From an uncultured Gammaproteobacteria bacterium (GTDB lineage: Bacteria > Patescibacteriota > Microgenomatia > CAZETR01 > Amesbacteraceae): a stretch of 51,708 bases of DNA. Made by a program: the position numbers and the translations under genes. Below the pieces are notes generated by a model, which worked only from the letters and a program-made list of their open reading frames with translations, searched no databases and had not been told where the DNA came from. The number at the start of each line of letters is the position of its first letter. Within the stretch, counting starts at the first letter, position 1. The DNA lies in the NCBI GenBank assembly GCA_964441445.1, contig CAYTYO010000001.1, positions 1 through 51,708 of the forward strand. Direction: 5' to 3'. Positions 19,212 to 47,262 of this stretch are shown here, in pieces.

Positions 19212-19487
19212 TATTATTAACAATAATGTGTTTTCCCTGGGGATAAGGGGTGAACCGTTTGTGAATATCTTGAATAACAATAAGGAAGAGTGTATAAACC
19301 TTGCCACTAGCAGTGGGCAGATTGTGGAGTGATGATAAAACTATCCACAATTAGGTGTATAAGTGGTTAGGCATCTTATTAAGATGAAGTAAACCCGAAA
19401 GCTGGGTTTGAAACTTAAAAGATGTTAACTTATCCACAGAGCCTACTACTTAAACGACTATATAATTGAAAGAAAGAATCGATAAAT
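19212..19487. promoter_or_regulatory. oriC-like dnaA-dnaN intergenic region with DnaA boxes
   Basis: TTATCCACA is perfect at 19430-19438. cTATCCACA is at 19341-19349 and TGgGGATAA at 19238-19246. AT-rich stretch at 19440-19485. Confidence 0.6.
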
Positions 19488-20609
19488 ATGAAGGCAACCG
19501 TTTTACAGACAGATTTCAATAAATGGTTAAGTGTGGTGACAAGAGTTGTGCCAAGCAGGGGACAGTTGCCAGTTTTGGCGAACGTATTAATTGAAGCAGA
19601 AAAGGAGGGATTGGTGCTGTCGGCAACAAATTTGGAAATAGGCTTACGTGTACAGGTCGGAGGGAAGGTAATTGAACAAGGGGCTGTAACTGTTCCGGCT
19701 AAAAATTTCAGTGAATTTGTGAGTTCTTTGCCGTCCGGGAATGTTGATTTGGAGACAGACGGGGAGAAATTAAAAGTTGCAGGGGGAAAGTTGTCGGCAG
19801 TTTTTACCGGAATTGCAGCCACAGAATTTCCGGTCATATCCAGGTTGGAAAATGTTAAGGATGAGAAAAAGGTAATCAAACTGAAGAGAAAGATTATTGA
19901 GGAGATCTCCAAAGAGGTTGCTTACTGTGCCGCAATGGATGAGAGCAGACCGGTGTTGACAGGGGTGCTGTTTAACGTTGAAGGAACAGTAATGAAAGTG
20001 ACGGCCACGGATGGATTTAGATTAGGCCGAAAGACAATAAAACTGGATGAAGAAATTACAGGATTAGAGAAGGGGCTGATTTTACCTGCCAGGACATTAA
20101 CGGAAATGGCCAAGATACTAAGTGAAGGAAAAAAGGAGGAATTAGAGTTAGGACTAGTGGGAGAAAGCAATCAGGCGGTGCTGGGGTATGACAATGCAGA
20201 AATGGCCTCGAGAGTATTGGAAGGAAATTTTCCCGATATGGAGAAGATTGTACCGAAAGAGTGGAAAACCGAGGTGGTTGTGGACAGAGAAGAAATACTG
20301 CGTGCAGTGAGAGCGGTGGGAATTTTTGCCCGGGATAGCGCTAATGTGGTGAGATTTGTGGTGGAAGGAAACAAATTAGGAGTGGAGGCTAGCGCAGCAC
20401 AAACGGGAGAGAGTAAGGTTACAGTAGAAGCGGAAACAGAAGGTGAGGACGTTTCCATTGCGTTTAACTACAGATATGTTTTGGATTTTCTGGGGAGTAC
20501 GGAGGCGGAAAGAATAAGGTTGAGGATAAACGACAGTTTAACTGCAGGAGTATTCGGAATTGATAAAAGTGAGGAACTTATTCACCTAATAATGCCGGTG
20601 AGAGTCTAA
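19488..20609 (+). CDS. dnaN: DNA polymerase III beta sliding clamp
   Basis: 373 aa directly after dnaA. Motifs LPVLANVLIEA, ATNLEIG, TATDGFRL and the end LIMPVRV. Confidence 0.93.
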   Translation: MKATVLQTDFNKWLSVVTRVVPSRGQLPVLANVLIEAEKEGLVLSATNLEIGLRVQVGGKVIEQGAVTVPAKNFSEFVSSLPSGNVDLETDGEKLKVAGGKLSAVFTGIAATEFPVISRLENVKDEKKVIKLKRKIIEEISKEVAYCAAMDESRPVLTGVLFNVEGTVMKVTATDGFRLGRKTIKLDEEITGLEKGLILPARTLTEMAKILSEGKKEELELGLVGESNQAVLGYDNAEMASRVLEGNFPDMEKIVPKEWKTEVVVDREEILRAVRAVGIFARDSANVVRFVVEGNKLGVEASAAQTGESKVTVEAETEGEDVSIAFNYRYVLDFLGSTEAERIRLRINDSLTAGVFGIDKSEELIHLIMPVRV

Positions 20610-21061
20610 GGGAGAGGATCTAAATAGTATACTTTAATAGTTGAAGGAACCTTAATTCTCTCCAGAGTGGTTTTTACTTCGGATTCCACATCTTTTTGAG
20701 TGAATCCAGTTTTGAGTCTGACGCGAATAGATTTTTTTTCAAAGTCATAAATCAACAAAAACCGGTCAGTAATTATGGGTAATTTAGTGAGAAAAGGCAT
20801 GTCATTTATTACCTTTGAAGTATAAGCACTTATTTCAAAGTCAATGGCGGCTTGCATCTTACCTTGTTCGATAATATTAGGTGAGAGGGCGGTTGTAGGA
20901 ATTACTTGAGAAGTGGGGGTGATAGTAGACGCGGGCGGATTTGTTTGAGGATTAGTTGTAGGAGTTTTTTCAGTTGTTATAGATATGGAAATAGCCATAA
21001 CAATTAAAATAATCACTAATGTGACGGCGTTTTTTTTTAAAAATGTTAGTATTTTTTTCAT
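20606..21061 (-). CDS. Hypothetical bitopic protein (TM plus Thr/Pro linker plus a domain of about 90 aa), last gene of the T4SS-like operon
   Basis: N-terminal TM VTLVIILIVMAISISI. No recognisable motif. Overlaps the upstream gene by 4 nt. Confidence 0.5.
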   Translation of the reverse strand: MKKILTFLKKNAVTLVIILIVMAISISITTEKTPTTNPQTNPPASTITPTSQVIPTTALSPNIIEQGKMQAAIDFEISAYTSKVINDMPFLTKLPIITDRFLLIYDFEKKSIRVRLKTGFTQKDVESEVKTTLERIKVPSTIKVYYLDPLP

Positions 21062-21915
21062 CGTGAGCCAAAACCTACAATTGATAAATCACCCCACCTG
21101 GCGCTAAGACCACTGATGGTATAGGCAGTACTTTTTAAACTGTTGTTTGATTCTACAGTGATGATGGCATCTCCGGGAAGTATTTGCCAAACCATGGCTA
21201 CATGGTCACCATTGCGGCCACGAGGACTACCGTCTCTGGCAATAATAATTGCGTCGCCCTGTTTAATACGCGAGGGATTGGCTAGAGCCTGGTTGATATC
21301 GACGTAACGGTTTTGGTTGACAAACCAGCTGCGCATACTAGGGGTGTAGATACAGTCTGGACATATAGATACGCCGGTTTCTGAGAAAGCCTTGATTGGC
21401 AGATACGTGCACCAGAATAAATTTTGACCACCAACTGGAGGGAAAGGGTTCGCTTGGAAGGCAGCCATATCAAACAACTCCGGATAATCGGGAGAGCGGT
21501 TCCAGAAACACCAAAAACCCCGGTATAGATTGTTAACAATGGTCCACGCACGGCTGCTGGTTGGGTCACCCGCAGAATTGGAGAAACTTAACGGTTCGTA
21601 ATCAGGGGTGCAACTGACGGGAGTTCCATCCCAGAGTGCAGTACGAAGCAGTCCCTGCGGTGTTACAAAGGCGGAGGCATTCATAATAAAAACGATGACA
21701 ACGAAGGTCATCCAAATAGTAAAACCTATGCCTGTGGCAATAGACACGATAACCATTAGATGAAAAAAATCTCTGGATATTGACTTTTTGAGCCCCAGAC
21801 CAAATCTTTCTGACGAAGACTTTTTTCCAAAAATTCCGGCTCCACCACCAAAAAGATCTTTGGTTTTTCCGAGAAAATTGCGAACAAAGGAAATTGGGGA
21901 TGTAATTTTTGCCAT
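21058..21915 (-). CDS. CHAP/NlpC-P60-like cell-wall hydrolase, membrane anchored (VirB1-equivalent role inferred)
   Basis: One TM. Candidate catalytic Cys in NLFWCTYLPIKAF and His in GDHVAMVWQI...ITVESNN. Confidence 0.5.
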   Translation of the reverse strand: MAKITSPISFVRNFLGKTKDLFGGGAGIFGKKSSSERFGLGLKKSISRDFFHLMVIVSIATGIGFTIWMTFVVIVFIMNASAFVTPQGLLRTALWDGTPVSCTPDYEPLSFSNSAGDPTSSRAWTIVNNLYRGFWCFWNRSPDYPELFDMAAFQANPFPPVGGQNLFWCTYLPIKAFSETGVSICPDCIYTPSMRSWFVNQNRYVDINQALANPSRIKQGDAIIIARDGSPRGRNGDHVAMVWQILPGDAIITVESNNSLKSTAYTISGLSARWGDLSIVGFGSR

Positions 21916-22196
21916 CAGGAATTAATTTTTTCGAGAATTAATAAAGGAAGTTTAAGGAGGTGATCTTTTTCTTCCTGGTATTTATTGGCAAAATGCTCAT
22001 CTGACTCATGAACTTCAATCAGATGTCGGAGTTCTTGCGGGGATTTGGAGAGAATTTGGCTGGCCCAATTCCAAAGAGGGGCTGAGGCGGAGGAAAAACT
22101 TTCAAGCTCTTTGTTTTCGTTACAAATGGAGATGATGGAGTTTTCCAATTCACTGATGACCGACCGGTCTAAATATTCGGGGAACGAAAAATTCAT
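21915..22196 (-). CDS. Hypothetical acidic 93-aa cytoplasmic protein
   Basis: ORF tightly coupled between the VirB4-like and CHAP-like genes. No motif recognised. Confidence 0.4.
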   Translation of the reverse strand: MNFSFPEYLDRSVISELENSIISICNENKELESFSSASAPLWNWASQILSKSPQELRHLIEVHESDEHFANKYQEEKDHLLKLPLLILEKINS

Positions 22197-24052
22197 TTTT
22201 GTTCGGCTTGAGCAACTAAGTGAGCCTTGATACCGGCTTCAACTTGTTTTTGGGCTAAGATTTCCGAGGGTTTGGTGGTGATCAATTTATGCTCGTCGGG
22301 TGAAGCGACAAATCTAACAGCAACATGATTATTACCAGCAAAGAATAAACCTTCGCCGACATTGGCACTGAGCAAAAGATGTTTTTCTCCTTCGGAGAGA
22401 TAAAAAACCTGAGTAATTTTGTCTACACCGGCAGGTGACTGTTTCATGAGAATTTGAATTGAAGAGTTGGTGACGATGGCTTTGCCGAAATCGGTGTTAA
22501 GAAAATCTTCCACATCCTGAGTGATGGTGGTTAGCCCGAGGAAATATTTGCGGGCACGTTTGGCGACACCGTAAAGAAAATTGGCAGAGTCGGGATAGCG
22601 CATGAGGTACCAGGCTTCATCAACCACAAGAATGCGTTTTTTGAGGTCACGGCGCATTTTGGTCCAAATGTAATCAAGGATTATAAATATTGCAATCGGT
22701 TTAAGAGAATCTTCAAGATCCCGGACAGAGAAGACGGTGAATTGGTTTTTTAACTGGACATTAGAGGGCTGATCAATGATGCCGGTAAAGCTGCCCTTGA
22801 CGAACCGCTCAATGCGATCGGCCAATGAAAGGGCCAATGGTTCCTCCATGCCGATGAAAGCCTTGTACAAGTCTTCCATGAGCGGAGGAGTGTTCTTTTG
22901 AGTTGATGGGTCGGGGGTAATGCCTTTCATTTTGTAAGCTAACCCCAGTGCCCGATCCAGAAGGGCTTCTTCTGTCGGGTTAAGGTCTCCCATGATGACT
23001 TTAAACATGGAGTGGAGAGATTGAATTTTGAGATTTAGTTCATTTTCTTCGGATGTTTCAGTGAGAAGAGATAAATCAAAAGGATTGATACGATTTTGGG
23101 AACTGTAGGCAAAATTAAGGTAGTCGCCACCCACGGCATCACAAAGAGTTTTATATTCGTTTTCAGGATCGATGACTATAACCTCAGTGCCGAACATAAG
23201 TGATCTGAGGATTTCCAACTTGACCGTATATGACTTCCCGGCACCGGCTTTGGCAAAGACTACAGTATTGGCATTTTCAAGGGTGAACCGGTCAAAGATC
23301 ACCAAACTGCCGTTGTGCTGGTTGATGCCGTATAAAATTCCTTCATTACTGGTAAGCTCTGACGAGGTGAAGGGAAACGTGGTAGCCAATGAGGTGGTAT
23401 CCATGTTTCGGGTAACCATAAGATGATCGACACAGGAGGGGAGAGTGTTTTTAAAGCCTTCAGCCTGTTGGAGAAGGGTTGGAGTGGCTTGAACCAGGAG
23501 GGCAGAAAGGGAACTGCTGACCTGTTTACTGGTGGTTTCCAGTTCTGACGGCGAGTCTGTGGGGATAGTGACATAGAGAGAGAACTGGAAAAACCGTTCG
23601 ATGCCTTTTACCAGGGAGTCTTGGAGAGTCATAGCGTCTTCCAATTTGGCCTGGGTGACTGGGTTTACGACCCGACCACGCTGAATATCAGTGGAGATTT
23701 CGGCACCCATTTCGGCGATTTTGCGGCGGAGATCATCCAAAGTACTTTTGCTTTCGACGGGATAGATGAACATGGAGATGCGAAGCGAGTGATCAAAATT
23801 GATAATCGGACCGAGCCAGTTGCTGGAAACAAACCGACGATTAATATTGGTAAAGAAGCTGCGGTAATAGCTGTCATTGATTTTTAAAACATTAAAATCC
23901 ACAGTTGCAGATTGCGGAGCGATAATGTCGCGGACAGTTTTGGCTTCTTTAAGTGTTTTTGTGGGCAAAATGCGGGAGTTGTCTACAGTAGCGGTTGGCT
24001 TAACCTGGGCTGGTTGAGAAGGTGTGGCGGCTTTGGATTTAAACAGCTTCAT
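22193..24052 (-). CDS. VirB4/TrbE/PrgJ-family T4SS ATPase
   Basis: Walker A FAKAGAGKSYTV, Walker B ILVVDEAWYL, downstream GLTTITQDVEDF. N-terminal YYRSFF...SSNWLGPII...ISMFIYPV block, typical of VirB4. Confidence 0.8.
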   Translation of the reverse strand: MKLFKSKAATPSQPAQVKPTATVDNSRILPTKTLKEAKTVRDIIAPQSATVDFNVLKINDSYYRSFFTNINRRFVSSNWLGPIINFDHSLRISMFIYPVESKSTLDDLRRKIAEMGAEISTDIQRGRVVNPVTQAKLEDAMTLQDSLVKGIERFFQFSLYVTIPTDSPSELETTSKQVSSSLSALLVQATPTLLQQAEGFKNTLPSCVDHLMVTRNMDTTSLATTFPFTSSELTSNEGILYGINQHNGSLVIFDRFTLENANTVVFAKAGAGKSYTVKLEILRSLMFGTEVIVIDPENEYKTLCDAVGGDYLNFAYSSQNRINPFDLSLLTETSEENELNLKIQSLHSMFKVIMGDLNPTEEALLDRALGLAYKMKGITPDPSTQKNTPPLMEDLYKAFIGMEEPLALSLADRIERFVKGSFTGIIDQPSNVQLKNQFTVFSVRDLEDSLKPIAIFIILDYIWTKMRRDLKKRILVVDEAWYLMRYPDSANFLYGVAKRARKYFLGLTTITQDVEDFLNTDFGKAIVTNSSIQILMKQSPAGVDKITQVFYLSEGEKHLLLSANVGEGLFFAGNNHVAVRFVASPDEHKLITTKPSEILAQKQVEAGIKAHLVAQAEQK

Positions 24053-24816
24053 GTTTTAGGGGTTGAAGGATTGATAACAGCTGAATTAACGGTGGAAGCA
24101 GCGGGTGGAGCTGCTGGTGTGGGGGAGGGAGGAGCTGAGGCCGGGGGTTGAGGGCTGGCGGAAATTGGCATGGCTTCTGTTCGGGGAAGAGAAACATGCG
24201 TACCAATAGAGTCGGGGTTGTAGGCATCGAAATAAAACTGGAGAATTTCCGGAGAAGTAAGCTGACGACCTTTAAGACCAATGCGGGTGAGCAAACGAAG
24301 CAAATGATCACGTTTGGGAGCAAGGTTAGTTGTAGCTCTGTCGATAATATATTCTTTGGGCAGGCGGGATTTGGCAGTTTGGCCACCTAGGGATTTAATA
24401 GAGGAAGAAATACCCAGCTCGAGAGAGCTGAAAGGAATAGAGATATAAAATTTCTTGTCAAGAACATTACCCTGGCGAACTATGGCTTTGACGAAATCCC
24501 GGTATTTGGTCATCTGATCTTTTACTTTAGGAGAAGTGATAGTAGCTAACTGAGCATCAATTTTGTCAATATAGCTCGAGATATCTTTGCGTTTACTGAC
24601 GACGACGATTTGGATGGAGAAGGTAAGGGAGTTGAGAAGTTGGGCATAGGAATAGATGGTTGCGTCCTGTTCTCGCTCGGATAAAAGGCCAAAATTTACG
24701 GCGTTGACGTCCAAGATCATGCAGGCTGAGCCATCGGAGAGGATGACAATATCATTGATGATGTCATCAACATCCAAAAGATCCTGAGTGCGAGGGGGGA
24801 AAGGATTTTTGCTCAT
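24049..24816 (-). CDS. VirB4 N-terminal-like protein with Pro-rich tail
   Basis: DIVILSDGSACMILDVNAVNFGLLSEREQDATIYSYAQLLNSLTFSIQIVV resembles the extreme N-terminal module of Gram-positive VirB4 ATPases. 4-nt overlap with the ATPase gene. Confidence 0.45.
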   Translation of the reverse strand: MSKNPFPPRTQDLLDVDDIINDIVILSDGSACMILDVNAVNFGLLSEREQDATIYSYAQLLNSLTFSIQIVVVSKRKDISSYIDKIDAQLATITSPKVKDQMTKYRDFVKAIVRQGNVLDKKFYISIPFSSLELGISSSIKSLGGQTAKSRLPKEYIIDRATTNLAPKRDHLLRLLTRIGLKGRQLTSPEILQFYFDAYNPDSIGTHVSLPRTEAMPISASPQPPASAPPSPTPAAPPAASTVNSAVINPSTPKT

Positions 24817-25847
24817 ACTTTTTTACCTTGAAGAATAACAGGCGGAACAATGTTACCTTTAACCTGAATTGAAACAGGGTCGAATTTAAGACCTTCCTTT
24901 TCAGCAAGAATATTGTAGGTTCCAGCCGGAAGCGGAATGGCGATTTGAAACTGACCTAATTTGTTGGTACGCAGGGCTCTGGCCGGAATGCCGGTATTAG
25001 TGTCAACTATTTCCACGGTGATCTGAGGCAGGGGTTGATTGGCGTCGTCGGTGATAAGTCCGGAAAGAATATTGGGGCTGGTAGGTGAAGAAATAAGAGA
25101 AGTAGTGGGGGCGGAGGGTGCTGAGACCAACGTGGAGGTTTGAGGAAGTTGGGAGGATTTGGTGTAGAGAGAAACAGAGGAAGTGGTGGGGGCTGTAGGC
25201 AGAGTGGGAGTTGGCTGGGAGATGGAGGAAGCAGGAGAAGGACTAGATGAAGCAGTATCGGACGGAGCGGAAGTGGCTACGGGTTGGCTATTAGGTGCGG
25301 ATGGCGGAGTTGTGGGAGCACCAAACACTTTGGATGTGGTAGTTTCTTTTCCAACAGGGACGGAACCTGAGCGGTGAAGTTTTGAGGCAATAAATTCTGA
25401 GAATGACGGGAGAACAATAGTGTGGGCAGGGGCGGGCTTGGCAGGAGGAGGTGGTGGGGCAGAAATTGGAGGAGAAGCTGATTTAGAGGCGGGAGGTGAA
25501 GCAGGAGAAGGGGCTGTAACGGGGGTAACAGGGGGAGGCGGAAGGACAGAATCGATAACAGCCTGAGGTATCCAGACAAATTCAGTGGGACTATAAATTG
25601 CTTTAACAAAAGCGCTGAGCCAGGAAGAGAAAGGACGACCGTTGATGGGGATGAAAGCCAAAAGAACACCGATTAAGACAGATAGCCCTGCCAGGGGATA
25701 TTTAACAACGGCGATAATTTCCAGTCTGAAAAACATGTAGCCGACGAGGATGCCTCCGGCCAACTGCAGGAATTGTTTTAAGGTCATGTCACCGACAAGA
25801 TGAAACTCGTAAGAAGAAATATTTTGAGGAACAGGATGATTTTCCAT
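24813..25847 (-). CDS. PrgI/VirB3-like membrane protein fused to a P/S/T-rich linker and a carboxypeptidase-regulatory-like beta-sandwich
   Basis: The N-terminus ISSYEFHLVGDMTLKQFLQLAGGILVG plus two TMs is PrgI-like. The C-terminus ITVEIVDTNTGIPARALRTNKLGQFQIAIPLPAGTYNILAEKEG is CarboxypepD_reg-like. Confidence 0.55.
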   Translation of the reverse strand: MENHPVPQNISSYEFHLVGDMTLKQFLQLAGGILVGYMFFRLEIIAVVKYPLAGLSVLIGVLLAFIPINGRPFSSWLSAFVKAIYSPTEFVWIPQAVIDSVLPPPPVTPVTAPSPASPPASKSASPPISAPPPPPAKPAPAHTIVLPSFSEFIASKLHRSGSVPVGKETTTSKVFGAPTTPPSAPNSQPVATSAPSDTASSSPSPASSISQPTPTLPTAPTTSSVSLYTKSSQLPQTSTLVSAPSAPTTSLISSPTSPNILSGLITDDANQPLPQITVEIVDTNTGIPARALRTNKLGQFQIAIPLPAGTYNILAEKEGLKFDPVSIQVKGNIVPPVILQGKKV

Positions 25848-26137
25848 ATATAAACGGCTTGATTAATCCTAACGCATGAAGTGGCAAATGCAAGTTAATG
25901 TTTTCACAGAAATTTCCGAGTAAAATTAATGAATGAAGAAGAGTGAAAAACTGGCAAATTGGATAATCACCGGTTTAATGGCGGCGTTTACACTTTTAAT
26001 CGGGTTAGGTGCCGTTTTTTTAAAAACAATCGGGAAGCTGTGCGGATGCTTTTAACACTAGCCTATAGTTGTTTGGGTGTGATAAAATAGGCAAGTTGTA
26101 TAGTATTATTTATTAATAAGCATAAAAAGCAAATATT

Positions 26138-29518: not shown

Positions 29519-29527
29519 TGCTTTTTG

Positions 29528-31321: not shown

Positions 31322-31376
31322 TTTGATATTTATACTTTAGTGCAACGGGTGTTAATAGGCAATATTGATTAGCTAG

Positions 31377-34300: not shown

Positions 34301-34712
34301 CATCGGCGTCAAGTTGTTGACGGATTTCAGCGTCAGCGAGGGGGTTTGCGGGCATGATATCCATATTGCAGATATTCATTACATCATCCGCCGGAGTGGT
34401 GCCAACGACGTTTAATGATTTGGCACATTTATAAGTGATGTATTTATTTTCCGGGTCAACGGAGAGGGGGGCTTCAGGATCTTTTTTAGGGATTAACGGA
34501 TCACACGGGTTGCCAGGATATGGGCGAAGTGGGTGAAATTCACTTCCACCGCCAGTGGTGGAAGCACAGGGAAAATTGAAGGGGTGCGGCCAAGGGGGTT
34601 GAACGTAGCTTTGGTAAGAACGAGAACTAGCTGCGGTGGGAGTTTGGGCTTGGACAAAGGAAGGAAAAAAGAGAAGAATCAGGGTAAAAAATACAGAAAA
34701 AAAAGTGGGCAT
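31377..34712 (-). CDS. 1111-aa secreted Cys-rich protein (candidate pilus-associated adhesin or tip protein)
   Basis: Signal peptide ...SFVQAQ. Two tandem 64-aa six-Cys modules. A knottin-like Cys cluster (CNCNPPRGNCRDRGSCVEEGNECDGIGTGDCCWGTCPPG). Follows the pilin array by 24 nt. Confidence 0.7.
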   Translation of the reverse strand: MPTFFSVFFTLILLFFPSFVQAQTPTAASSRSYQSYVQPPWPHPFNFPCASTTGGGSEFHPLRPYPGNPCDPLIPKKDPEAPLSVDPENKYITYKCAKSLNVVGTTPADDVMNICNMDIMPANPLADAEIRQQLDADGRTDYFRCSNDHNAVCFVQRITWNTHFDLSSVELPFSGNTQDELVDADKVNGYLSWYLNGTVYQSSQQPLIHYENDDRKQITTFSGPLNKLYPKEFRDPLKVTMAETGPGSMYHNYLVACQRNIDAAYIINALREVIRFFFNALVTSPLAMANLIFDLAEHDISRLWMVGRALIRSAFLPEDDFTAANVALVFAQIGINRSVDVFSTFIELGQSNLARLGQVIEAFRTDLAESCATSNTRRRLNSVDENDDWIMRYVPFSSLEDTTGEFTVSLIPSLQPTDINGQILSMSLTINTGSDSRLYFPHLRAAIALSSLANALHTPVGIPTTPIPSQSFNTFGCIYNPSTYSCSVNPVTNNCGPGYTTYDACSPHSSSALDCSNSNPHWCIPTGPTPTAVPPSNTFDCVYQTSTSVCSVNPNATNCGPGYTSYDACTVHSGSPQDCANSNPHWCIPTSSVSPAPTRRPTGIPIEYRSGLSYDDPDLVSQRITEHQGIADSTIVQGEDDRNPGVPVYNAQDVAGQIGYLRIYSEGHLIRNTSVREGQPAPTPLYVPLDALCDIDDTRTNEADSLIGQEVNATLTYYQLFQYTPQLVIDCNCNPPRGNCRDRGSCVEEGNECDGIGTGDCCWGTCPPGVFTCTFTDPNYATVCSAIGNETDCNAQQPYCAWEPHTLGSCPSWPTIDLRSAARVHPFTETPLIEKVYDLLVTNPQSLLKRWLPKLPLSASSSWSLKSGRENTVPATSVSTYTAATNDLDNTSYTAGEGGSGALYFPHVGSLADNILGLPNPDNLNLQRLLRPRGFVGWTTGSASQSAAGINCNVSIGEQNAACVNRDNYIRIAEDWTSMPEGTHAALCYNDVVFRAGEAGVNPGLALLIWLNESDSSNYLWATPVEDFGIHVGPYSTPNNFDQQITGFLQTVNAYRSMCASAISTYGGARVFAAMFLVGNSCIPTAASDVYANGLIQKWGWIGGSCAFPFP
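32946..33296 (-). repeat. Tandem duplication inside the 1111-aa gene (two copies, 192-nt / 64-aa period)
   Basis: NTFGCIYNPSTYSCSVNPVTNNCGPGYTTYDACSPHSSSALDCSNSNPHWCIP versus NTFDCVYQTSTSVCSVNPNATNCGPGYTSYDACTVHSGSPQDCANSNPHWCIP. Confidence 0.85.
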
Positions 34713-34736
34713 GGAATCATTGTAGCAGAGGATAAA

Positions 34737-35105
34737 TTATATACATGCTCCTGCCTGGCGATTGATACAGATATCAAATACAGTGACATTGATCCCCAAG
34801 AATGTGCCGATTAAGCCAAGAATAACCCAGGCGGAGAGAGAAATGATTAAACCACCCAGGGCATAGGTGAGTGTTTGCTGTGCTAATGTGGTGGCTTGTT
34901 TATCGGCACCTGCTGATAAGTAACGGTAACCGCCATAAAGCAGCATGCCGAGCGAAGCTAAGGAAATAAGCGGAATTATGATACGAAGAAGGTTAGAAAA
35001 TATCGCATTCAAATCCTCGATTTCTGCAGGAGGGGCATCGTTTTGGGCGTGGGCGGAGTTGGCTAATAAAAAAAAGAAGGTAAATATATACGAGAAAATA
35101 GACAT
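34737..35105 (-). CDS. VirB2/TrbC-like T4SS pilin paralog 12 (122 aa)
   Basis: Signal peptide ...SAHAQ. Two helices flank LLYGGYRYLSAGADKQATTLAQQTLTYALGGLIISL. Confidence 0.65.
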   Translation of the reverse strand: MSIFSYIFTFFFLLANSAHAQNDAPPAEIEDLNAIFSNLLRIIIPLISLASLGMLLYGGYRYLSAGADKQATTLAQQTLTYALGGLIISLSAWVILGLIGTFLGINVTVFDICINRQAGACI

Positions 35106-35131
35106 GGTGTTGATTTGATATTAGTTTAATA

Positions 35132-35161
35132 AAACAATCCCGGCAAGAGCCGGGATTGTTT
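35132..35161 (-). terminator. Rho-independent terminator after pilin paralog 11
   Basis: Minus strand AAACAATCCCGGC-TCTT-GCCGGGATTGTTT, followed by TATT. Starts 18 nt after the stop codon at 35180-35182. Confidence 0.65.
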
Positions 35162-35179
35162 GTCGATCGGACTTGACGG

Positions 35180-35605
35180 TTACTCGGTGCCAATCGTTTG
35201 CAGATTGACTTGAATAAGGTCGACGCCGAACAAAACTCTGATGATATACAGCAGAGCATAAGCTGAGAAGACGATGGCCAAACCGATTAAGGCCGCAGTA
35301 ATCTTTTTGCGGGCTTTTTCAGTACCTTCTTTATCTCCTCCGGCCAAGATCCATTGCAGACCACCCCAAAGCAAAACAACGAAGGAAATCACTCCAGCAA
35401 CACCCAACATGATATTAAGAATGGTTCTTAACATGTCAGACGGGGTGAAAGCGGTTAGAGGGGCGAAATCTTCGGAAATGTTAGCGATTGAGGCTTGGTC
35501 CCCACCATCAATAGACTGGAGTTCAACCTGGGCTAAAACATTTGCGGGATGAGCTATAAATGGAATTGCAGCAACGACTGAGGAAGCAATTTTTTTAAAG
35601 TTCAT
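35180..35605 (-). CDS. VirB2/TrbC-like T4SS pilin paralog 11 (141 aa), candidate major pilin
   Basis: Signal peptide ...NVLAQ. Core LLWGGLQWILAGGDKEGTEKARKKITAALIGLAIVF. Has its own promoter, SD (GGAGGTGA) and terminator. Confidence 0.7.
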   Translation of the reverse strand: MNFKKIASSVVAAIPFIAHPANVLAQVELQSIDGGDQASIANISEDFAPLTAFTPSDMLRTILNIMLGVAGVISFVVLLWGGLQWILAGGDKEGTEKARKKITAALIGLAIVFSAYALLYIIRVLFGVDLIQVNLQTIGTE

Positions 35606-35635
35606 AATTTGATCCTCACCTCCATTTCAGGAGAA

Positions 35636-35646
35636 AGTATAGCACA
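35636..35646 (-). promoter_or_regulatory. Extended -10 promoter element TGTGCTATACT upstream of pilin paralog 11
   Basis: Read on the minus strand, 30 nt upstream of the ATG at 35605. Close to the TGTGCTATATT 11-mer seen at 45745 and 50203. Confidence 0.5.
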
Positions 35647-35662
35647 AATGGCCAGGGGAGCT

Positions 35663-36052
35663 CTAATTTCCGAGGTTGGCAATTCGGAATTCCAAGAGAT
35701 CTACTTGGAATAGCGCGCGGAGAATAAAGACAATGGCGTAGGCTGAAAAGACGATGGCCAATCCGGTCAAGGCAAAGATGATTTTTTTGCGGGCTTTTTC
35801 CGCGGCGTCTTTGTCACCGCCGGAAGTAATCCACTGAAATCCTCCCAGGAGCAGGAAAATGAAAGCGGCAACACCCGATCCTCCGAGCAACCAAAGAATG
35901 GATGTGCGGACATACTGACCAGGGCGAAGGTTGTAAAGATTGGTAAATGGTGATGCGGGATCCTGAAGATTGATAACGCTTTGAGCTGAAGCTTTACCCA
36001 CTGAAATTAGGAGGGCAAAAATAAAGAAAAAAAGCGTTTTTATTTTTGACAT
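35663..36052 (-). CDS. VirB2/TrbC-like T4SS pilin paralog 10 (129 aa)
   Basis: Signal peptide ...KASAQ. Core LLLGGFQWITSGGDKDAAEKARKKIIFALTGLAIVF. Confidence 0.7.
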   Translation of the reverse strand: MSKIKTLFFFIFALLISVGKASAQSVINLQDPASPFTNLYNLRPGQYVRTSILWLLGGSGVAAFIFLLLGGFQWITSGGDKDAAEKARKKIIFALTGLAIVFSAYAIVFILRALFQVDLLEFRIANLGN

Positions 36053-36098
36053 GGGCTGGTTTTTAGTTTAGCGGAAGTATCTTCCGGTTACAAGTTAA

Positions 36099-36749
36099 TT
36101 AGGGGCAGGCGTAAGAGCAGGTGATGGGTGGACAGCTGGTACTGCCAGTCGGATCACTCCACCCAGAGCTAGTGCAAGAGTGACACTGGCCGTCGTCTCC
36201 CAAACCAATTTGGCCGAGACTGGCGCATTGCATGGGTTCGGTATTGCACGGACAAGGACCACCTTGAGTGCTGGGGGTAGGTTGAGGATCGGGGTTTGAG
36301 GTAGGATTAGGACCTGGGCCAGGTCCTGGTCCGCCTCCACCTCCTCCGCCGCTGGCGTTTTGACCAAGTGGAGAAAGAATGATCCTAATGGGATCGATGC
36401 CGAAAAAGGTTCTAACCGCAAAGAAAATTGCATAAATCGAGAAAACGAGAATAAGACCAAGTAAAGCGTTGGCAATTATTTTCCGGGCTTTTTCGGCCAC
36501 ATCTTTGTCGCCGCCGGAAGTAACCCACCTGATGCCGCCGATAAGAAGAAAAATTAAAGAAGCTACACCGGCGATGCCTAAAAGTGAATTAAGAATAGTA
36601 CGAACATATTGGGAAGGAGTGATGTCCTGAAGAGTTTGAAAGTTGACGTTGGCAGTGGTAATTCCGACCTGATCAGTTTGAGCGACAACCGAGGAGATGC
36701 CGGCAAACAAAAAAGTAAGTATAAATGCGACACCAAACAGTTTTGGCAT
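36099..36749 (-). CDS. VirB2/TrbC-like pilin paralog 9 with Gly/Pro linker and Cys-rich C-terminal knot (216 aa)
   Basis: Core LLIGGIRWVTSGGDKDVAEKARKIIANALLGLILVF, then GGGGGGPGPGPGPNP...PCPCNTEPMQCASLG...CHSCTSSGWSDPTGSTSCPPITCSYACP. Confidence 0.7.
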   Translation of the reverse strand: MPKLFGVAFILTFLFAGISSVVAQTDQVGITTANVNFQTLQDITPSQYVRTILNSLLGIAGVASLIFLLIGGIRWVTSGGDKDVAEKARKIIANALLGLILVFSIYAIFFAVRTFFGIDPIRIILSPLGQNASGGGGGGGPGPGPGPNPTSNPDPQPTPSTQGGPCPCNTEPMQCASLGQIGLGDDGQCHSCTSSGWSDPTGSTSCPPITCSYACP

Positions 36750-36752
36750 AGA

Positions 36753-37079
36753 TCAGGTTCCCAGCGGGCCAATGTTAAAGCCGATCAGATCGACATTGAA
36801 GAGGACGCGGAGAATAAACAGGATGGCGTAGGCCGAAAAGACAACCGCCAAACCAATCAAAGCGTTAATAATTTTTTTGCGGGCTTTTTCAACAGCATCC
36901 TTGTCGCTACCGGCAGTAATCCACTGAACTCCACCCCAAAGCAAGAAGATAAAGGAACCAACGCCAGCTGCCCCAAGAAGAAGATTAATTGCAGTAGTGA
37001 CGTAAGAAGATGGGGTAATATCACCCAAAAAATCATATCTGGCGTCTCCTGTAACTATAGTGACTAAGTTTTCGTCCAT
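36753..37079 (-). CDS. VirB2/TrbC-like pilin paralog 8 (108 aa, no N-terminal signal peptide)
   Basis: Core LLWGGVQWITAGSDKDAVEKARKKIINALIGLAVVF. Starts MDENLVTIV. Confidence 0.65.
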   Translation of the reverse strand: MDENLVTIVTGDARYDFLGDITPSSYVTTAINLLLGAAGVGSFIFLLWGGVQWITAGSDKDAVEKARKKIINALIGLAVVFSAYAILFILRVLFNVDLIGFNIGPLGT

Positions 37080-37082
37080 TTT

Positions 37083-37472
37083 TTACGGATAAGGTGGGGC
37101 GGCCGGACCTCCGCCGCTTTCTAATTGGGGGAAATTAAATTGAGTTAGGGAAATTCCAAAGACCGTACCCACGACCCAGGCAACGGCATAGACTGAGAGC
37201 AAGAGGATGATGCCTATGACAGCATTGCGAATTTTGGCGGTAGCTTTTTGGACTGATTCCTTGTCTCCTCCGGCTGAGATGTATTGGTAACCGGCAATAA
37301 GGAGGTTGATGAAAAAATATATGCCCCCAATACCAAGTGCTGTAGTAATAATGTTGCGAAGCAAGAGTTGGACCATGACACTGGGGGCGGTGCCACCGTC
37401 GGCAGCGTCGGCCGCATTTCCGATTTGGGCATTAATGACAGGGTTGATTATTTGAAATAGGGAGAAAAACAT
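37083..37472 (-). CDS. VirB2/TrbC-like pilin paralog 7 (129 aa)
   Basis: Short leader ...VINAQ. Core LLIAGYQYISAGGDKESVQKATAKIRNAVIGIILLL. Confidence 0.65.
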   Translation of the reverse strand: MFFSLFQIINPVINAQIGNAADAADGGTAPSVMVQLLLRNIITTALGIGGIYFFINLLIAGYQYISAGGDKESVQKATAKIRNAVIGIILLLSVYAVAWVVGTVFGISLTQFNFPQLESGGGPAAPPYP

Positions 37473-37476
37473 AATA

Positions 37477-37860
37477 TTAAGGGTTAGGATTTACTATACG
37501 AGCAAATGTAACATGGAAGTTGAATATATCTAAACCAAAGAAACTACCCATTAATCCGAGTAGGGCATACGAAGCCACGATTACAAGCAATCCGAGTACG
37601 GAAAAAATCAATCGTTTCTGGGAACTTTGAACGGTCGCCTTTTCACCCGAAGCACCGATCCATTGGAGGCCGGCAATAATAATCTGAAACAGAAACCACA
37701 GGGCACCAATAATAGTAAGCAGCCCAATCAGACTGGAGATAAGCACTTCTGTGCGAGTGAAGGCATAGTAATAGTTATCAGGACCTCTTTCAAAGTTGCC
37801 CAACGGGCCATATGAATTTATGCTGCCGAGGGGGACTGCCTGAGCGAGAAAATCTCTCAT
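37477..37860 (-). CDS. VirB2/TrbC-like pilin paralog 6 (127 aa, no signal peptide)
   Basis: Core IIIAGLQWIGASGEKATVQSSQKRLIFSVLGLLVIV. Its start overlaps the upstream gene by 4 nt. Confidence 0.6.
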   Translation of the reverse strand: MRDFLAQAVPLGSINSYGPLGNFERGPDNYYYAFTRTEVLISSLIGLLTIIGALWFLFQIIIAGLQWIGASGEKATVQSSQKRLIFSVLGLLVIVASYALLGLMGSFFGLDIFNFHVTFARIVNPNP

Positions 37861-38228
37861 GGAGTTACTGTTTGCGGGCCATAAATAACAGGGTTAATAA
37901 GCAGATCCCAACCATCGGGACCAAAGATGACAAAGCCCATAAGGCCACCAATAAGGATCGAACCAGCGACAATGAGCAAACCGAGAAAAGATCTCCAAAT
38001 GCGATCATGTGCGTTTTGAACTTTTTTGGCGTCTCCTTGGGCACTAAGATAGCCGAAGCCAGCAAGTACCAAATTAAGCAACGTGTAGAGACCGGCGATG
38101 ACGACTGCAAATCTGATTAGTGAGGTGAAAAGGACAATCAGTCCGCCGCCGGTATCGGTTTGGTATCCGGCGGTACCAGGGGACAGAATTGTAAAGGGAT
38201 TATTAATAGTGCCAAAACTTCCGCCCAT
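37857..38228 (-). CDS. VirB2/TrbC-like pilin paralog 5 (123 aa, no signal peptide)
   Basis: Core LVLAGFGYLSAQGDAKKVQNAHDRIWRSFLGLLIVA. Confidence 0.6.
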   Translation of the reverse strand: MGGSFGTINNPFTILSPGTAGYQTDTGGGLIVLFTSLIRFAVVIAGLYTLLNLVLAGFGYLSAQGDAKKVQNAHDRIWRSFLGLLIVAGSILIGGLMGFVIFGPDGWDLLINPVIYGPQTVTP

Positions 38229-38236
38229 TGTGTTAT

Positions 38237-38638
38237 TTAGGTTACTAGTGAACTAATAAAATTGATACCGGTAATCGTGCCGATAATTTGTAGTATAAAA
38301 TAAGCGGCAACGACAAGCAACAAACCAATTGCTCCTTGGGTGATGCTTCTTTGAGCTTTTTGTGCAACTTGGACAGAATCCATTTGGCCGCTATTAATGA
38401 CATATTGGTAACCGCCATAAAGAATTAAAAAAACAAAGAAAACTCCAGCGATTACCATAGCATTGGGAAGGAGTAGGGAAATCACACCGCCAATATTGCC
38501 GTTTCGAAAAGTGGTGGCGTTGGGATTGTATAAGAAAAATTCATTTGGAAGATTTACGGCTTGGGCATTCGTTGTGTGGGGAAAAAACAAGATAGAAACA
38601 CTGTCTATGAGTAATAGCGAAAACAGGGACGGTTTCAT
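38237..38638 (-). CDS. VirB2/TrbC-like pilin paralog 4 (133 aa)
   Basis: Signal peptide ...TTNAQ. Core LILYGGYQYVINSGQMDSVQVAQKAQRSITQGAIGLLLVV. Confidence 0.6.
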   Translation of the reverse strand: MKPSLFSLLLIDSVSILFFPHTTNAQAVNLPNEFFLYNPNATTFRNGNIGGVISLLLPNAMVIAGVFFVFLILYGGYQYVINSGQMDSVQVAQKAQRSITQGAIGLLLVVAAYFILQIIGTITGINFISSLVT

Positions 38639-38934
38639 ACAAGATCAGCTCCGGTGATAGTTTCTAACATTTGGAGGATAAAAAAGGCAGCAATTATAAT
38701 AATCAAGCCCAGTGCGGCGTTGGTCAACTGTTTGGTAACCTGTTGAATTCGACCTTCATCTCCAAACGCGGTCATATATGAGACGCCAGAAATAATTAAT
38801 TGATAAAAGAAGTATAGTCCGGCGGCGGAGATAGCGAAAAGGAGAGCACGACTCATTACATCAGATGGGAGAGTGTTATAGTCCGTAAATTGGGTGCTGG
38901 GGTTGCCAATACCACTGATTTGGGCGAGTTTCAT
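38635..38934 (-). CDS. VirB2/TrbC-like pilin paralog 3 (about 99 aa, no signal peptide)
   Basis: Core QLIISGVSYMTAFGDEGRIQQVTKQLTNAALGLIIII. I prefer the start at 38934 (MKLAQISG). The track start at 38991 overlaps the upstream gene by 44 nt. Confidence 0.55.
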   Translation of the reverse strand: MKLAQISGIGNPSTQFTDYNTLPSDVMSRALLFAISAAGLYFFYQLIISGVSYMTAFGDEGRIQQVTKQLTNAALGLIIIIAAFFILQMLETITGADLV

Positions 38935-38947
38935 AGTAGGGTATAAA

Positions 38948-39505
38948 TTATACAGAAAAACCAAATGAGCCGGTGCCGAAAATCCGAACACCGACGAAAT
39001 TGAAAATCAATATTGCGATGGAGATGATAACCAAACCCAGCAGAGCTGAAACCATAAATGATTTTGCATCATTTACCCGTTTGGGGTCACCAGAGGCAGT
39101 GACCATAAGAAAACCAGCGTAGGCAATGGTGACAAAAGCTGCGCCAGCAGCAATGCCAACTGACCAGGTAACGATCTGATTGATAAAAGTCTTGGGTTCG
39201 GAGGCATTGATACAACCAATGGAGGTGCGAACATTTCCAGGAGTTGAGTTGCAAAAAACTTCTGTCGTGTCTACAACGGGAGCTGTGGCAGGGAGGGAGG
39301 TTTGGCAGGTTTGTTGTTCCGCAAACGTACCACAACATTGAATGAGGACAAGGTCATTGTCGTAACAGCCCCAAGTATCAATGGGGCAGGCGGCGTTGGT
39401 AGGAGCGACACAAGCTGCCTTTGCTTGAGTAAGAAAAAAGAACAGTTGTAGGACAATCGACAGAGATATAAAACTGAAGATTAGTGTCCGATGCGTTTTT
39501 ATCAT
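38948..39505 (-). CDS. Pilin paralog 2: N-terminal Cys-rich module fused to a VirB2/TrbC-like pilin domain (185 aa)
   Basis: Signal peptide ...TQAKA. Cys module CVAPTNAACPIDTWGCYDNDLVLIQCCGTFAEQQTC. Then SIGCINASEP...IAYAGFLMVTASGDPKRVNDAKSFMVSALLGLVIIS. Confidence 0.65.
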   Translation of the reverse strand: MIKTHRTLIFSFISLSIVLQLFFFLTQAKAACVAPTNAACPIDTWGCYDNDLVLIQCCGTFAEQQTCQTSLPATAPVVDTTEVFCNSTPGNVRTSIGCINASEPKTFINQIVTWSVGIAAGAAFVTIAYAGFLMVTASGDPKRVNDAKSFMVSALLGLVIISIAILIFNFVGVRIFGTGSFGFSV

Positions 39506-39589
39506 GGTCTATTGTTTTAAGTGTAGCACGTCAGAGGACACATGAGTACGTTGATTTTTCGGCCGATAATTATGGAGGTTAAGGATTAA

Positions 39590-40507
39590 TTACAGATTAA
39601 AACCAAAGGTCGTTAAATTAAGCACACGAACACCAATAAAGTTAAATATCAGTATGCTGAGTGCGATTGCAATGTAACCAATTAATGAGCTGGAAAGAAG
39701 TTGTTTCGCCTGGGTTATTTGGTCTTCTGATCCTGCAGCTGTGGTAAAAAGATATCCGGCGTAAATAATACAGAGGAAAAGAATTCCAGATCCCACTCTA
39801 ACGGTTAATCCAAGCACCTGACCAATAAGAGCTTTGGTATCTGAGGCATTAATGCAACCAATGGCAGTGCGGATTCCTGATGTGGATGAAAACGGATCAC
39901 AGAAGATTTGAATATTGTCGGTTGTGACGGGTGGTGGAGATCCTCCAACAATACAGGGCTGTGGGGATGCCGTGGTGCATTGTCCCACTGAGAGGACGAG
40001 ACAAACGTTGTTGTCCCAAGTGAACCCGGAGTCACAGTTACTGGTTTGGACCATGCATCTACCCGTGGATGAATTCCAGTTGCATTGAAAAGTATTGGGA
40101 GGGTTGACCGGATTAACTATACAAGGAAAATTACCAGATGCCTGGCACGCGGCTGCGGTGCTGTGAACACCACATTCCGTACCCGGCATGTATCCGGAAC
40201 CGCAGTTGCTTACCGATCCGCAGACCCCGGGAGATGAACGCCAAGCACATGAATACGTATTGAGTGGGGTGGCCGGGTCAACAACGCAGGTGTGTGGATT
40301 GCCAGTTTCACACACATCTACCGCCAGTCCGTAGCAAGGTGCGGAACCAACGATATATCCGGTATCGCAGTTGGAGTTTTGAACGGAACATTGATTTGCT
40401 GCTCCGTTCCAACCACAATTAAATATGCCTTGCGCCGAGATCGGGTTGGGGGTAAAAAAAGTAAGAATGAGTATGGAGATGAAGATAATTGGACGAAGAA
40501 TTTTCAC
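39590..40507 (-). CDS. Pilin paralog 1: three six-Cys modules fused to a VirB2/TrbC-like pilin domain (305 aa)
   Basis: Signal peptide ...ISAQ. Three repeats of about 55 aa (NCGW.., NTYSCAW.., NTFQCNW..). Then AIGCINASDT...IIYAGYLFTTAAGSEDQITQAKQLLSSSLIGYIAIA. GTG start. Confidence 0.7.
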   Translation of the reverse strand: MKILRPIIFISILILTFFTPNPISAQGIFNCGWNGAANQCSVQNSNCDTGYIVGSAPCYGLAVDVCETGNPHTCVVDPATPLNTYSCAWRSSPGVCGSVSNCGSGYMPGTECGVHSTAAACQASGNFPCIVNPVNPPNTFQCNWNSSTGRCMVQTSNCDSGFTWDNNVCLVLSVGQCTTASPQPCIVGGSPPPVTTDNIQIFCDPFSSTSGIRTAIGCINASDTKALIGQVLGLTVRVGSGILFLCIIYAGYLFTTAAGSEDQITQAKQLLSSSLIGYIAIALSILIFNFIGVRVLNLTTFGFNL

Positions 40508-46861: not shown

Positions 46862-47262
46862 GGTGGAGATGGAGGGAGTTGAACCCTCGTCTGTATAGAT
46901 TTGAATTCCAGTTGTTACAAGTTTAGTTGAAATAAAGCTTTCAACGGCTTTCGGTTGATTAGTCTTTTCTTTTGTGAAGCCAACCAAAAGTAACTTACCA
47001 AAAGAGCATCCCGATTTGGTTTAACTCCACATAGGTCAACAATCGGAAAAATTGAACCTAAGAGAGCCAGATCGTACCGGCTTAAGCGAATGCCGCGGAA
47101 GGTGCGAACTGGTTGACAGCCATGAACGGATTGATCTTCGCGATCAGACCGTCAAAACGTGCTTTTAAATTAGCACTTTGGTTTGAACTTGTTTTACGAG
47201 TGAATTCAGCCTCGGCTTGCTGGAAATTTCAAAGTACCTACACATCGAAACCCGTCATCCCC
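46862..47262 (-). ncRNA. ssrA: tmRNA (SsrA)
   Basis: The 5' end GGGGATGACGGGTTTCGA pairs with the 3' end CATCTCC-A-CC, giving a G3:U pair. T-arm GAGGGTTCAACTCCCTC. Internal tag frame ...NQFAPSAAFA-TAA, with the stop at 47082-47084. Confidence 0.85.

Follow-up and report, generated by a model that had tools for sequence, protein, structure and literature searches.

Is a T4SS (type IV secretion system) lying beside dnaA and dnaN, with no recognisable DNA-transfer genes around it, a conjugative element, the relic of one, or a fixed part of the chromosome put to another use? The question is raised by a gene cluster at positions 20606-40507 of contig CAYTYO010000001.1. This window is one entire contig of 51,708 bp, and every absence reported below holds for these 51.7 kb alone. 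We conclude that the locus is probably a vertically inherited chromosomal T4SS of a Patescibacterium (Microgenomatia, Candidatus Amesbacteria-like), which would have descended from monoderm (MPF_FATA) conjugation machinery and lost its link to DNA processing. This reading is carried by the gene content, the family assignments, a split VirB4, the lack of transfer genes on the contig, synteny and the orthology of the pilin set, all established in this analysis. The system itself has already been published; the locus adds no new kind of T4SS and is a complete, uninterrupted Microgenomatia copy.

Core genes and the split VirB4

The map of open reading frames (ORFs) shows that the cluster consists of 20 minus-strand genes and one plus-strand gene, all of them intact. 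In order of transcription there are 12 small ORFs (34737-40507) followed by ORFs of 1111, 597, 344, 255, 619, 93, 285 and 151 aa. The "break" in the minus-strand run reported in the initial annotation is present, but it is a genuine plus-strand gene of 1126 aa (26138-29518) between the 597- and 344-aa ORFs. On the dnaN side the cluster is bordered by the 151-aa ORF, which ends at 20606 and has its last 4 nt in common with the end of dnaN. When the cluster was scanned for promoters and terminators, the counts were no higher than in shuffled controls. The core genes, in order of transcription, are:

29528-31321, minus strand: candidate VirB6-like polytopic protein, 597 aa; signal-like segment and at least five hydrophobic helices; position and topology fit.
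24813-25847, minus strand: PrgI/VirB3-like membrane protein, 344 aa; PF12666 at 32.7 bits (cutoff 27); two hydrophobic helices.
24049-24816, minus strand: TrsD-like ORF, 255 aa; N-terminal piece of a split VirB4; 4-nt overlap with virB4.
22193-24052, minus strand: VirB4 ATPase, 619 aa; P-loop_TraG at 104.5 bits; PDB 4ag5 at E=5e-56.
21915-22196, minus strand: acidic soluble protein, 93 aa; net charge -8, no transmembrane helix.
21058-21915, minus strand: candidate CHAP-like cell-wall hydrolase, membrane-anchored, 285 aa; functional slot of VirB1.
20606-21061, minus strand: bitopic protein, 151 aa; N-terminal transmembrane helix (3-33), Pro/Thr linker, small C-terminal domain.

The 619-aa ATPase has intact Walker A (267-274) and Walker B (474-479) motifs and reaches 367 bits (cutoff 325) on NCBIfam NF045971, which represents the CD1110 family of Gram-positive conjugative elements. 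The initial annotation had named a failure to match the VirB4 family as grounds for abandoning its reading; with this profile and with PDB 4ag5, the match was obtained. Judged by its sequence, the 255-aa ORF supplies the N-terminal portion that the ATPase lacks; it is the "TrsD" of the literature. It covers positions 105-277 of NF045975 (E=3e-8) and the ATPase covers 285-892, and in three relatives the two are fused in frame into one protein of 787-822 aa (L003, 390-2834; L006, 9278-11746; L007, 7477-9840). In most other relatives they are split with a 4-nt overlap, as in the window. The ORF scores 19 bits on the TrsD profile NF041427, and its relatives carry the precomputed assignment PF26593 (TraC-like), while a PDB search with the family gave nothing. 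A TrsD-like homologue is present at 68-71 of the 80 VirB4 loci that matched best in a tblastn search among 185,579 species genomes.

The call of a PrgI/VirB3-like protein was likewise upheld by PF12666. Downstream of this domain the protein has a linker of ~160 aa, 69% of it P, S, T or A, and then a C-terminal Ig-like CarboxypepD_reg domain (PF13620, 35.6 bits); the same domain architecture is found in relatives L082 and L085. For the 597-aa protein, the polytopic topology and the position expected of VirB6 were both recovered. All 75 homologues of this protein are unannotated in the database, and a PDB profile search with the family returned nothing. Its AlphaFold2 (AF2) model has a pLDDT of 76.6, and ranks 1-4, 9, 14 and 20 of the Foldseek search with that model are chains of the R388 stalk complex (TrwI/VirB6 with TrwJ/VirB5; probability at most 0.82, E 0.45-5). 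On structure match, topology and position together, a VirB6-like identity is probable, though not proven.

The 285-aa protein carries the catalytic motifs of the CHAP-like hydrolase that had been proposed, namely FWC169TY, GDH238VAMV and VE255SN (Cys169/His238/Glu255) at typical spacing; a PDB sequence search found no match. Among relatives, the membrane anchor of the protein encoded after VirB4 is retained (conserved motif IINSSAYVTP) while the catalytic domain is swapped, even against L082, whose VirB4 is 91% identical. The slot is occupied as follows:

Window, 21058-21915: CHAP-like.
L082, 22997-23219: M23.
L029, 11817-12815: M23.
L002, 11841-16190: VanY.
L026, 11750-13390: M23 and NAGPA.

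M23 also occupies the slot in L011. The properties of the two small ORFs agree with their earlier description as an acidic and a bitopic protein. The 93-aa ORF is conserved in the closest relatives only (54-71% identity). The 151-aa ORF keeps its place just before dnaN with a divergent sequence, and its orthologue in L081 has a weak Big_5 match.

Chromosomal setting and inheritance

Relaxase, integrase, VirD4, TcpA and VirB11 had no ORF match in Pfam scans of the contig, and only three of its proteins, namely DnaA, VirB4 and a fused TsaC-TsaE, contain a Walker A motif. The defining parts of a conjugative T4SS or integrative conjugative element (ICE), that is, a relaxase, a type IV coupling protein (T4CP) and an integrase with att repeats, were not found in the 51.7 kb, in line with the initial annotation. 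Its statement that neither a tRNA nor direct repeats flank the cluster was also borne out: the nearest tRNA is 7.5 kb away, and the search for att-like direct repeats at the borders yielded none, just short imperfect chance matches and the similarity among pilin paralogues.

Housekeeping genes adjoin the cluster for 20 kb on one side and 11 kb on the other. The left flank holds groES/EL, sugar and tRNA-modification genes, L25, RNase H, jag, yidC, rnpA, rpmH, dnaA and dnaN; the right flank holds spoIID, three conserved unknown genes, smpB, the transfer-messenger RNA (tmRNA) gene, a ComFC-like gene and, from 48 kb on, tRNAs. Overall GC content and that at third codon positions (GC3) are 0.46 and 0.44 in the cluster versus 0.446 and 0.436 in the housekeeping genes. 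The codon-usage correlation with housekeeping genes is low (0.61) and was left unused, since membrane proteins have an amino-acid composition that confounds it.

The best 80 VirB4 loci all belong to Patescibacteria-type metagenome-assembled genomes (MAGs), with 49-84% VirB4 identity. The top matches are at 78-84%, and those that are named are Candidatus Amesbacteria, Microgenomates-group and related MAGs. The gene order (pilins, Cys-rich protein, VirB6-like, antisense ORF, PrgI, TrsD, VirB4, hydrolase region, dnaN, dnaA, rnpA, yidC) is shared by at least 13 Microgenomatia loci, and the second border, from spoIID to smpB, is identical too in the five relatives with longer flanks. The synteny comparison that had been proposed as a check thus shows order and both borders to be conserved. 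Within ~41 of the 80 loci, dnaA lies at most 10 kb from virB4, and the same flanks occur in species whose VirB4 differs by 9-22%. The conserved order and flanks, and GC and GC3 values equal to those of the flanks, speak for vertical inheritance and against a mobile element; on these sequence features the cluster is a fixed part of the chromosome. The earlier description of a Gram-positive-type core on the chromosome, and not of an ICE, is supported.

The alternative of a decayed or cryptic ICE, whose relaxase-T4CP-integrase module would lie off the contig, draws on the fact that only 51.7 kb are in view and on the membership of VirB4 in a family of conjugative-element ATPases. It would have to accommodate the long housekeeping flanks, shared across the 9-22% divergence of VirB4, the flank-like base composition, the want of an att-like repeat or adjacent tRNA, and ORFs that are all intact. 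In addition, relaxases are nearly absent from Patescibacteria and missing from most of the genomes that carry virB4 (PMC12102498). We regard this alternative as extremely improbable.

Many of the records compared, among them the TPA (third-party annotation) MAGs L002, L004, L005, L007 and L013, are titled "uncultured Gammaproteobacteria bacterium" despite VirB4 identities of 78-84% and Amesbacteria synteny. These titles appear to be mislabelled, the genomes being those of Patescibacteria.

The initial annotation placed the cluster next to the replication origin. dnaA and dnaN, both identified by Pfam, occupy 17829-20609, and DnaA boxes cluster around them:

19212-19487, no strand: dnaA-dnaN spacer, putative oriC; perfect DnaA box TTATCCACA at 19430, one-mismatch boxes at 19238 and 19341.

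A further perfect box is found at 17784, upstream of dnaA. The GC3 skew does not add to this: on the plus strand it is positive (0.06-0.67) for every gene on either side of dnaA, with no inversion at the putative oriC, and relatives are inconsistent, with an inversion at dnaA in some and none in others. Because the skew neither confirms nor excludes an origin at dnaA, proximity to the origin rests on dnaA/dnaN and the DnaA-box cluster. If replication does start between dnaA and dnaN, all 20 minus-strand T4SS genes run head-on to the fork and the antisense ORF alone is co-directional. virB4 converges on dnaN with the same geometry in ~37 of the 80 related loci.

Several neighbouring genes merit mention in their own right. 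Close to the cluster on its downstream side are smpB (45169-45630, plus strand), the tmRNA gene (46862-47262, minus strand) and the ComFC-like gene (47327-48001, plus strand; double zinc ribbon and phosphoribosyltransferase). A 608-aa protein encoded next to smpB (43361-45187, plus strand) has no Pfam match and a single central hydrophobic segment; its gene keeps its place, with 35-55% identity, in each of the five longer relatives, and its Gly-rich C-terminal half, with one weak NCBIfam NHL-type match, may be repeat- or propeller-like. In the other flank, TsaC (Sua5/YciO/YrdC) and TsaE are joined in one ORF (9004-10089, plus strand) that is followed by TsaD (10106-11167), forming a compact t6A-synthesis pair.

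Pilins, surface proteins and possible cargo

The 12 small ORFs had been described as VirB2/TrbC-like pilins, and this was confirmed by PF18895 (T4SS_pilin; Pfam gathering score 26.6 bits) for nine and by alignment and orthology for the rest. Of these three, one falls just short of the gathering score, another scores weakly and the third matches no Pfam profile. All 12 align as one hairpin, in which two hydrophobic helices surround a charged loop with the consensus G-G-D-K..EKA.KKI. In order of transcription, and followed by the secreted protein that comes next, they are:

39590-40507, minus strand: pilin 12, 305 aa; signal peptide, three ~55-aa six-Cys modules, VirB2-type hairpin; PF18895 at 28.0 bits; 21 Cys.
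38948-39505, minus strand: pilin 11, 185 aa; 8-Cys N-terminal ectodomain; PF18895 at 42.7 bits; 42% identity to the pilin 12 core.
38635-38991, minus strand: pilin 10, 118 aa; PF18895 at 29.4 bits; collinear orthologues at 45-68% identity.
38237-38638, minus strand: pilin 9, 133 aa; PF18895 at 25.5 bits (below 26.6); hairpin alignment; orthologues.
37857-38228, minus strand: pilin 8, 123 aa; no Pfam match; hairpin alignment; orthologues at 40-56% identity in five relatives.
37477-37860, minus strand: pilin 7, 127 aa; PF18895 weak at 18.8 bits; hairpin alignment; orthologues.
37083-37472, minus strand: pilin 6, 129 aa; PF18895 at 34.1 bits.
36753-37079, minus strand: pilin 5, 108 aa; without signal peptide; PF18895 at 37.6 bits; pilin 2-5 subfamily.
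36099-36749, minus strand: pilin 4, 216 aa; Gly/Pro linker and 8-Cys C-terminal tail; PF18895 at 31.8 bits.
35663-36052, minus strand: pilin 3, 129 aa; PF18895 at 27.7 bits.
35180-35605, minus strand: pilin 2, 141 aa; PF18895 at 38.2 bits; most conserved pilin, orthologues at 58-74% identity.
34737-35105, minus strand: pilin 1, 122 aa; PF18895 at 28.7 bits, TrbC at 18.1 bits.
31377-34712, minus strand: secreted acidic protein, 1111 aa, 40 Cys; signal-like N-terminus, net charge -45; candidate distal or surface component.

Identity among the window's paralogues averages 26% and reaches 59% within the pilin 2-5 subfamily, whose members are 44-59% identical to one another. For every one of the 12, five other genomes contain a one-to-one orthologue (32-74% identity), and the order of the genes is the same; these matches stand well above the second best (e.g., 166 versus 105 bits). 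The full set of 12 is present in L082, which has a distinct orthologue even for pilin 12. This one-to-one, collinear orthology implies that the duplications predate these species and that each copy was retained; non-redundant structural roles would fit it better than a cassette of antigenic variants.

Deposited gene calls of the closest relatives skip several pilins or place short ORFs on the wrong strand; in L081 (5400-10000), tblastn finds 11 collinear pilin genes where ~5 are called. As gene callers miss pilins in this way, published array sizes based on called proteins are probably underestimates.

The 1111-aa protein, described earlier as secreted and Cys-rich, has a signal-like N-terminus and 40 Cys and gave no match in the Pfam scan. 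A six-Cys module of ~55 aa (NTF.C....S..C.V....NC..GY...C...) occurs twice in it (aa 457-598) and three times in pilin 12 (aa 27-200), with a BLASTP similarity of E=3e-11 under composition adjustment; this common module ties the two proteins together as parts of one surface structure. The AF2 model has a mean pLDDT of 73, falling mostly below 50 in the module region (aa 460-609), and Foldseek found no match to it in PDB or BFVD. In all relatives compared, the gene has the pilins on one side and the VirB6-like gene on the other. The N-terminal ~45% of the family is conserved, and relatives bear M23 peptidase, SGNH/GDSL esterase, GH5 or NAGPA modules. A lysozyme/SLT fold for the C-terminal ~165 aa, an idea that came from an "ES..SNY...DFGI" motif and from co-occurring M23 domains in L016, L020 and L030, was rejected when the domain profile found no PDB match and Foldseek none in PDB or BFVD. 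An M23 domain in the window's protein was dismissed too, as the M23 matches of the family profile stem from other members of the alignment. Identity with L082 falls from 91% for VirB4 to 76% for TrsD, 55% for the VirB6-like protein and 47% for the Cys-rich protein; the surface interface evolves fastest.

With 12 pilins, several of them with Cys-rich ectodomains, and a giant secreted Cys-rich protein, the locus could also encode an adhesion filament and nothing more, the VirB4 machine assembling pilins and Cys-rich adhesins through which nothing passes. Conjugative pili are indeed chiefly attachment organelles (PMC12857230). However, Patescibacteria already adhere to their hosts by type IV pili (PMC12102498, PMC10633639), and the lytic modules in relatives of the Cys-rich protein suggest that the envelope is breached, which goes beyond mere binding. 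Moreover, ultrathin sections of the Microgenomatia strain OT8 reportedly show tubes that connect to the host cytoplasm (bioRxiv 10.64898/2026.06.21.733656). Adhesion as the sole function therefore seems improbable to us.

If something does pass, the product of the gene on the opposite strand is a candidate for it:

26138-29518, plus strand: soluble, highly charged protein, 1126 aa; no transmembrane helix, signal peptide, Walker A motif or Pfam match.
Antisense ORFs in relatives: L013, 5222-8002; L007, 2235-5198; L082, 15243-18806; L083, 14440-17853; L085, 15613-18615.

About 34% of its residues are charged, and it has 8 relatives only among 1.84 billion representative proteins. At least 15 relatives have an antisense ORF of like character, position and orientation between the VirB6-like and PrgI-like genes; these ORFs encode soluble proteins of 570-1190 aa with ~30% charged residues, and a Pfam scan found no domain in any of them. 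The window's protein is a mosaic, its N-terminal half being common to six proteins and its C-terminal half shared only with that of L013. Compared with L082 it shows 40% identity across 41% of its length; its gene is the fastest-evolving of the cluster. That the like-positioned ORFs form a single family could not be demonstrated: jackhmmer converges at nine members, and the others link pairwise.

These observations bear on the possibility that the apparatus exports effectors: proteins of the parasite would be delivered to the interior or surface of the host cell with no coupling protein involved, and the antisense protein would be a substrate. Protein secretion without a T4CP has precedents in Bordetella Ptl and Brucella VirB (PMC12102498, PMC12857230). 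The antisense protein diverges as fast as the surface proteins although it has neither signal peptide nor transmembrane helix, and it combines a mosaic structure with a fixed position. However, it shows neither a secretion signal nor a chaperone or toxin domain, it could just as well be an accessory protein of the cytoplasm that evolves fast, and the homology of all such ORFs could not be demonstrated. Effector export is accordingly a possibility that we hold to be unlikely. A broader proposal, which we offer tentatively and with low confidence, joins two ideas: the 12 pilins would be ordered subunits of a heteromeric tube (major, minor and Cys-module adhesin subunits, the tip having its six-Cys module in common with the 1111-aa protein), and the antisense protein would be a polymorphic effector that needs no coupling protein.

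Import of DNA, environmental or from the host, for nucleotides or transformation would be another use for such a machine, by analogy with ComB of Helicobacter. ComB-type systems lack a T4CP and a relaxase, as does this contig, and the ComFC-like gene lies 7 kb from the cluster. VirB4 also has a weak match to the archaeal DNA importer CedB, though at 41 bits it is far under the cutoff of 700. We take K02242 to be ComFC. In Candidatus Southlakia epibionticum, the gene SEML1_0021, assigned K02242, follows the pilin genes and is non-essential (PMC10633639). Competence genes are found beside the T4SS in the class ABY1 (PMC12102498). The ComFC-like gene of the window, however, is part of the conserved flank and lies outside the cluster, and Southlakia is competent through type IV pili and ComEC; there, comEC can be deleted with retention of viability while the T4SS is essential (PMC12857230), so that DNA uptake linked to ComEC is not what makes the T4SS essential. 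We judge a DNA-uptake machine to be quite improbable, and only slightly to be entertained.

The reading that we prefer is a chromosomal T4SS serving obligate episymbiotic growth, not conjugation. In this model the two-polypeptide VirB4, made of the TrsD-like protein and the ATPase, would dock on the membrane through the PrgI/VirB3-like and VirB6-like proteins, and the membrane-anchored CHAP-like hydrolase would open the cell wall locally. VirB2-type pilins would be pulled from the membrane and polymerised into an extracellular tube or pilus, of which the 12 pilins would be non-redundant subunits, several with Cys-rich surface modules. The 1111-aa protein might be displayed at or near the distal end, facing the host envelope. 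The apparatus would contact and probably breach the host bacterium and carry macromolecules between the cells. We infer that these subunits assemble into a pilus, where the Cys-rich protein sits, what the cargo is and in which direction, import or export, it moves. Essentiality of the T4SS in a Saccharimonadia species and host-directed tubular connections in a cultivated Microgenomatia strain come from the literature on other Patescibacteria.

Several points weigh against this reading. On the side of the components, no VirB8-like protein was identified. The VirB6-like protein scores 16.8 bits on TrbL, under the cutoff of 25.9, and three of 18 family members match TrbL; its top four Foldseek hits in PDB, all TrwI/VirB6, are weak (E 0.45-0.9, target-normalised TM-score 0.38-0.46), and this part of the initial assignment stays under the curated cutoff. 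The same applies to the hydrolase, whose Pfam CHAP score of 18.3 bits is under the cutoff of 26. As the Cys-rich protein has no recognisable fold, its tip placement is a guess from gene order, secretion signal and modular relatives. Because the window is the whole contig, a genome-wide lack of a T4CP cannot be claimed; Patescibacteria encode their VirD4 homologues mostly far from virB4 (PMC12102498), and this genome, like many of theirs, may have a gene for a coupling protein at another place. Finally, the link between the tubes of OT8 and a T4SS is its authors' suggestion, not a demonstration (bioRxiv 10.64898/2026.06.21.733656).

A large part of the bacterial diversity not yet in culture consists of Patescibacteria, which depend on host cells; few machines have been shown to be essential for this way of life, and their relaxase-less T4SS is one of them. 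The locus provides handles for experiments in its one-to-one pilins, a divergent and probably VirB6-like family that evades profiles, a candidate distal protein whose relatives bear swappable lytic modules, and a candidate substrate gene.

Comparison with known systems

Among the closest known counterparts is the T4SS of Candidatus Southlakia epibionticum ML1 (SEML1_0006-0019), which lies beside dnaA, resembles Gram-positive conjugation systems and includes an essential pilin series (Wang et al., 2023; PMC10633639). Transposon sequencing (Tn-seq) showed it to be essential for epibiotic growth, and no coupling protein or relaxase was recognised in the cluster (PMC10633639). Both systems are chromosomal and only a few genes away from dnaA, with VirB4, a TrsD-like protein, PrgI, PF18895 pilins and, as candidates in the window, a VirB6-like protein and a cell-wall hydrolase after VirB4; in neither cluster was a relaxase or coupling protein recognised. 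They differ in class (Saccharimonadia versus Microgenomatia here), in pilins (six, on the strand opposite to the core, versus 12 on the core strand), in the VirB6-like component (two "extended" proteins of ~1000 aa versus one of 597 aa) and in the hydrolase (lysozyme-type versus CHAP-like). The Southlakia annotation tables consulted show no 40-Cys secreted protein or antisense soluble ORF. Essentiality for episymbiotic growth has been shown for Southlakia alone.

A survey of the whole phylum came to the same reading and found the VirB4 proteins of Patescibacteria to form one monophyletic clade akin to MPF_FATA (Quinonero-Coronel et al., 2025; PMC12102498), and these systems were listed as a new T4SS branch in a 2025 review (PMC12857230). 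The survey found TrsD to be the commonest partner, along with PrgI and VirB6, and dnaA, dnaN and rnpA nearby; VirB2 arrays had 2-11 genes with ~25% mean identity and occurred chiefly in Microgenomatia and Saccharimonadia (PMC12102498). Mean pilin identity in the window (26%) agrees with this value, while the array is larger, at 12 pilins, of which hidden Markov models (HMMs) alone detect 9-11. VirB6, which the survey called "scarce or absent" in Microgenomatia, is represented here by a divergent, syntenic family that is probably VirB6-like, and where the survey suggested that pilin variety gives host-range or antigenic versatility, the orthology in our loci points to fixed, non-redundant roles. 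One-to-one pilin orthology, the antisense hypervariable gene, the six-Cys module common to a pilin and the secreted protein, and the hydrolase domain swap were not found in either paper (PMC10633639, PMC12102498). Within Microgenomatia, the first cultivated strain, OT8, has been described in a June 2026 preprint to take up host RNA and to form tubes "that may be T4SS pili", which reach the host (bioRxiv 10.64898/2026.06.21.733656).

Among more distant systems, those of Gram-positive conjugative elements share the CD1110-family VirB4, partners resembling PrgI and TrsD, and the absence of an outer-membrane core; their polytopic VirB6/PrgH-like protein and CHAP-type wall hydrolase have candidate counterparts in the window. 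They are equipped with oriT, a relaxase and a coupling protein, reside on plasmids or ICEs and use surface adhesins without VirB2 pilins, whereas in the window the transfer module was not found on the contig and pilins are abundant. ComB of Helicobacter pylori is likewise a chromosomal T4SS without relaxase or coupling protein, but it belongs to a diderm, is built on a VirB7-10 core with ComB2 as its one pilin-like protein, and works with ComEC, of which the essential role of the Southlakia T4SS is independent (PMC12857230). Tandem, divergent VirB2 genes beside a T4SS for host interaction are found in Bartonella and Anaplasma as well. The T4SSs of these diderm Alphaproteobacteria translocate effectors and include a coupling protein, and antigenic variation is the role proposed for their arrays; in contrast, the paralogues of the window are individually conserved and collinear across species.

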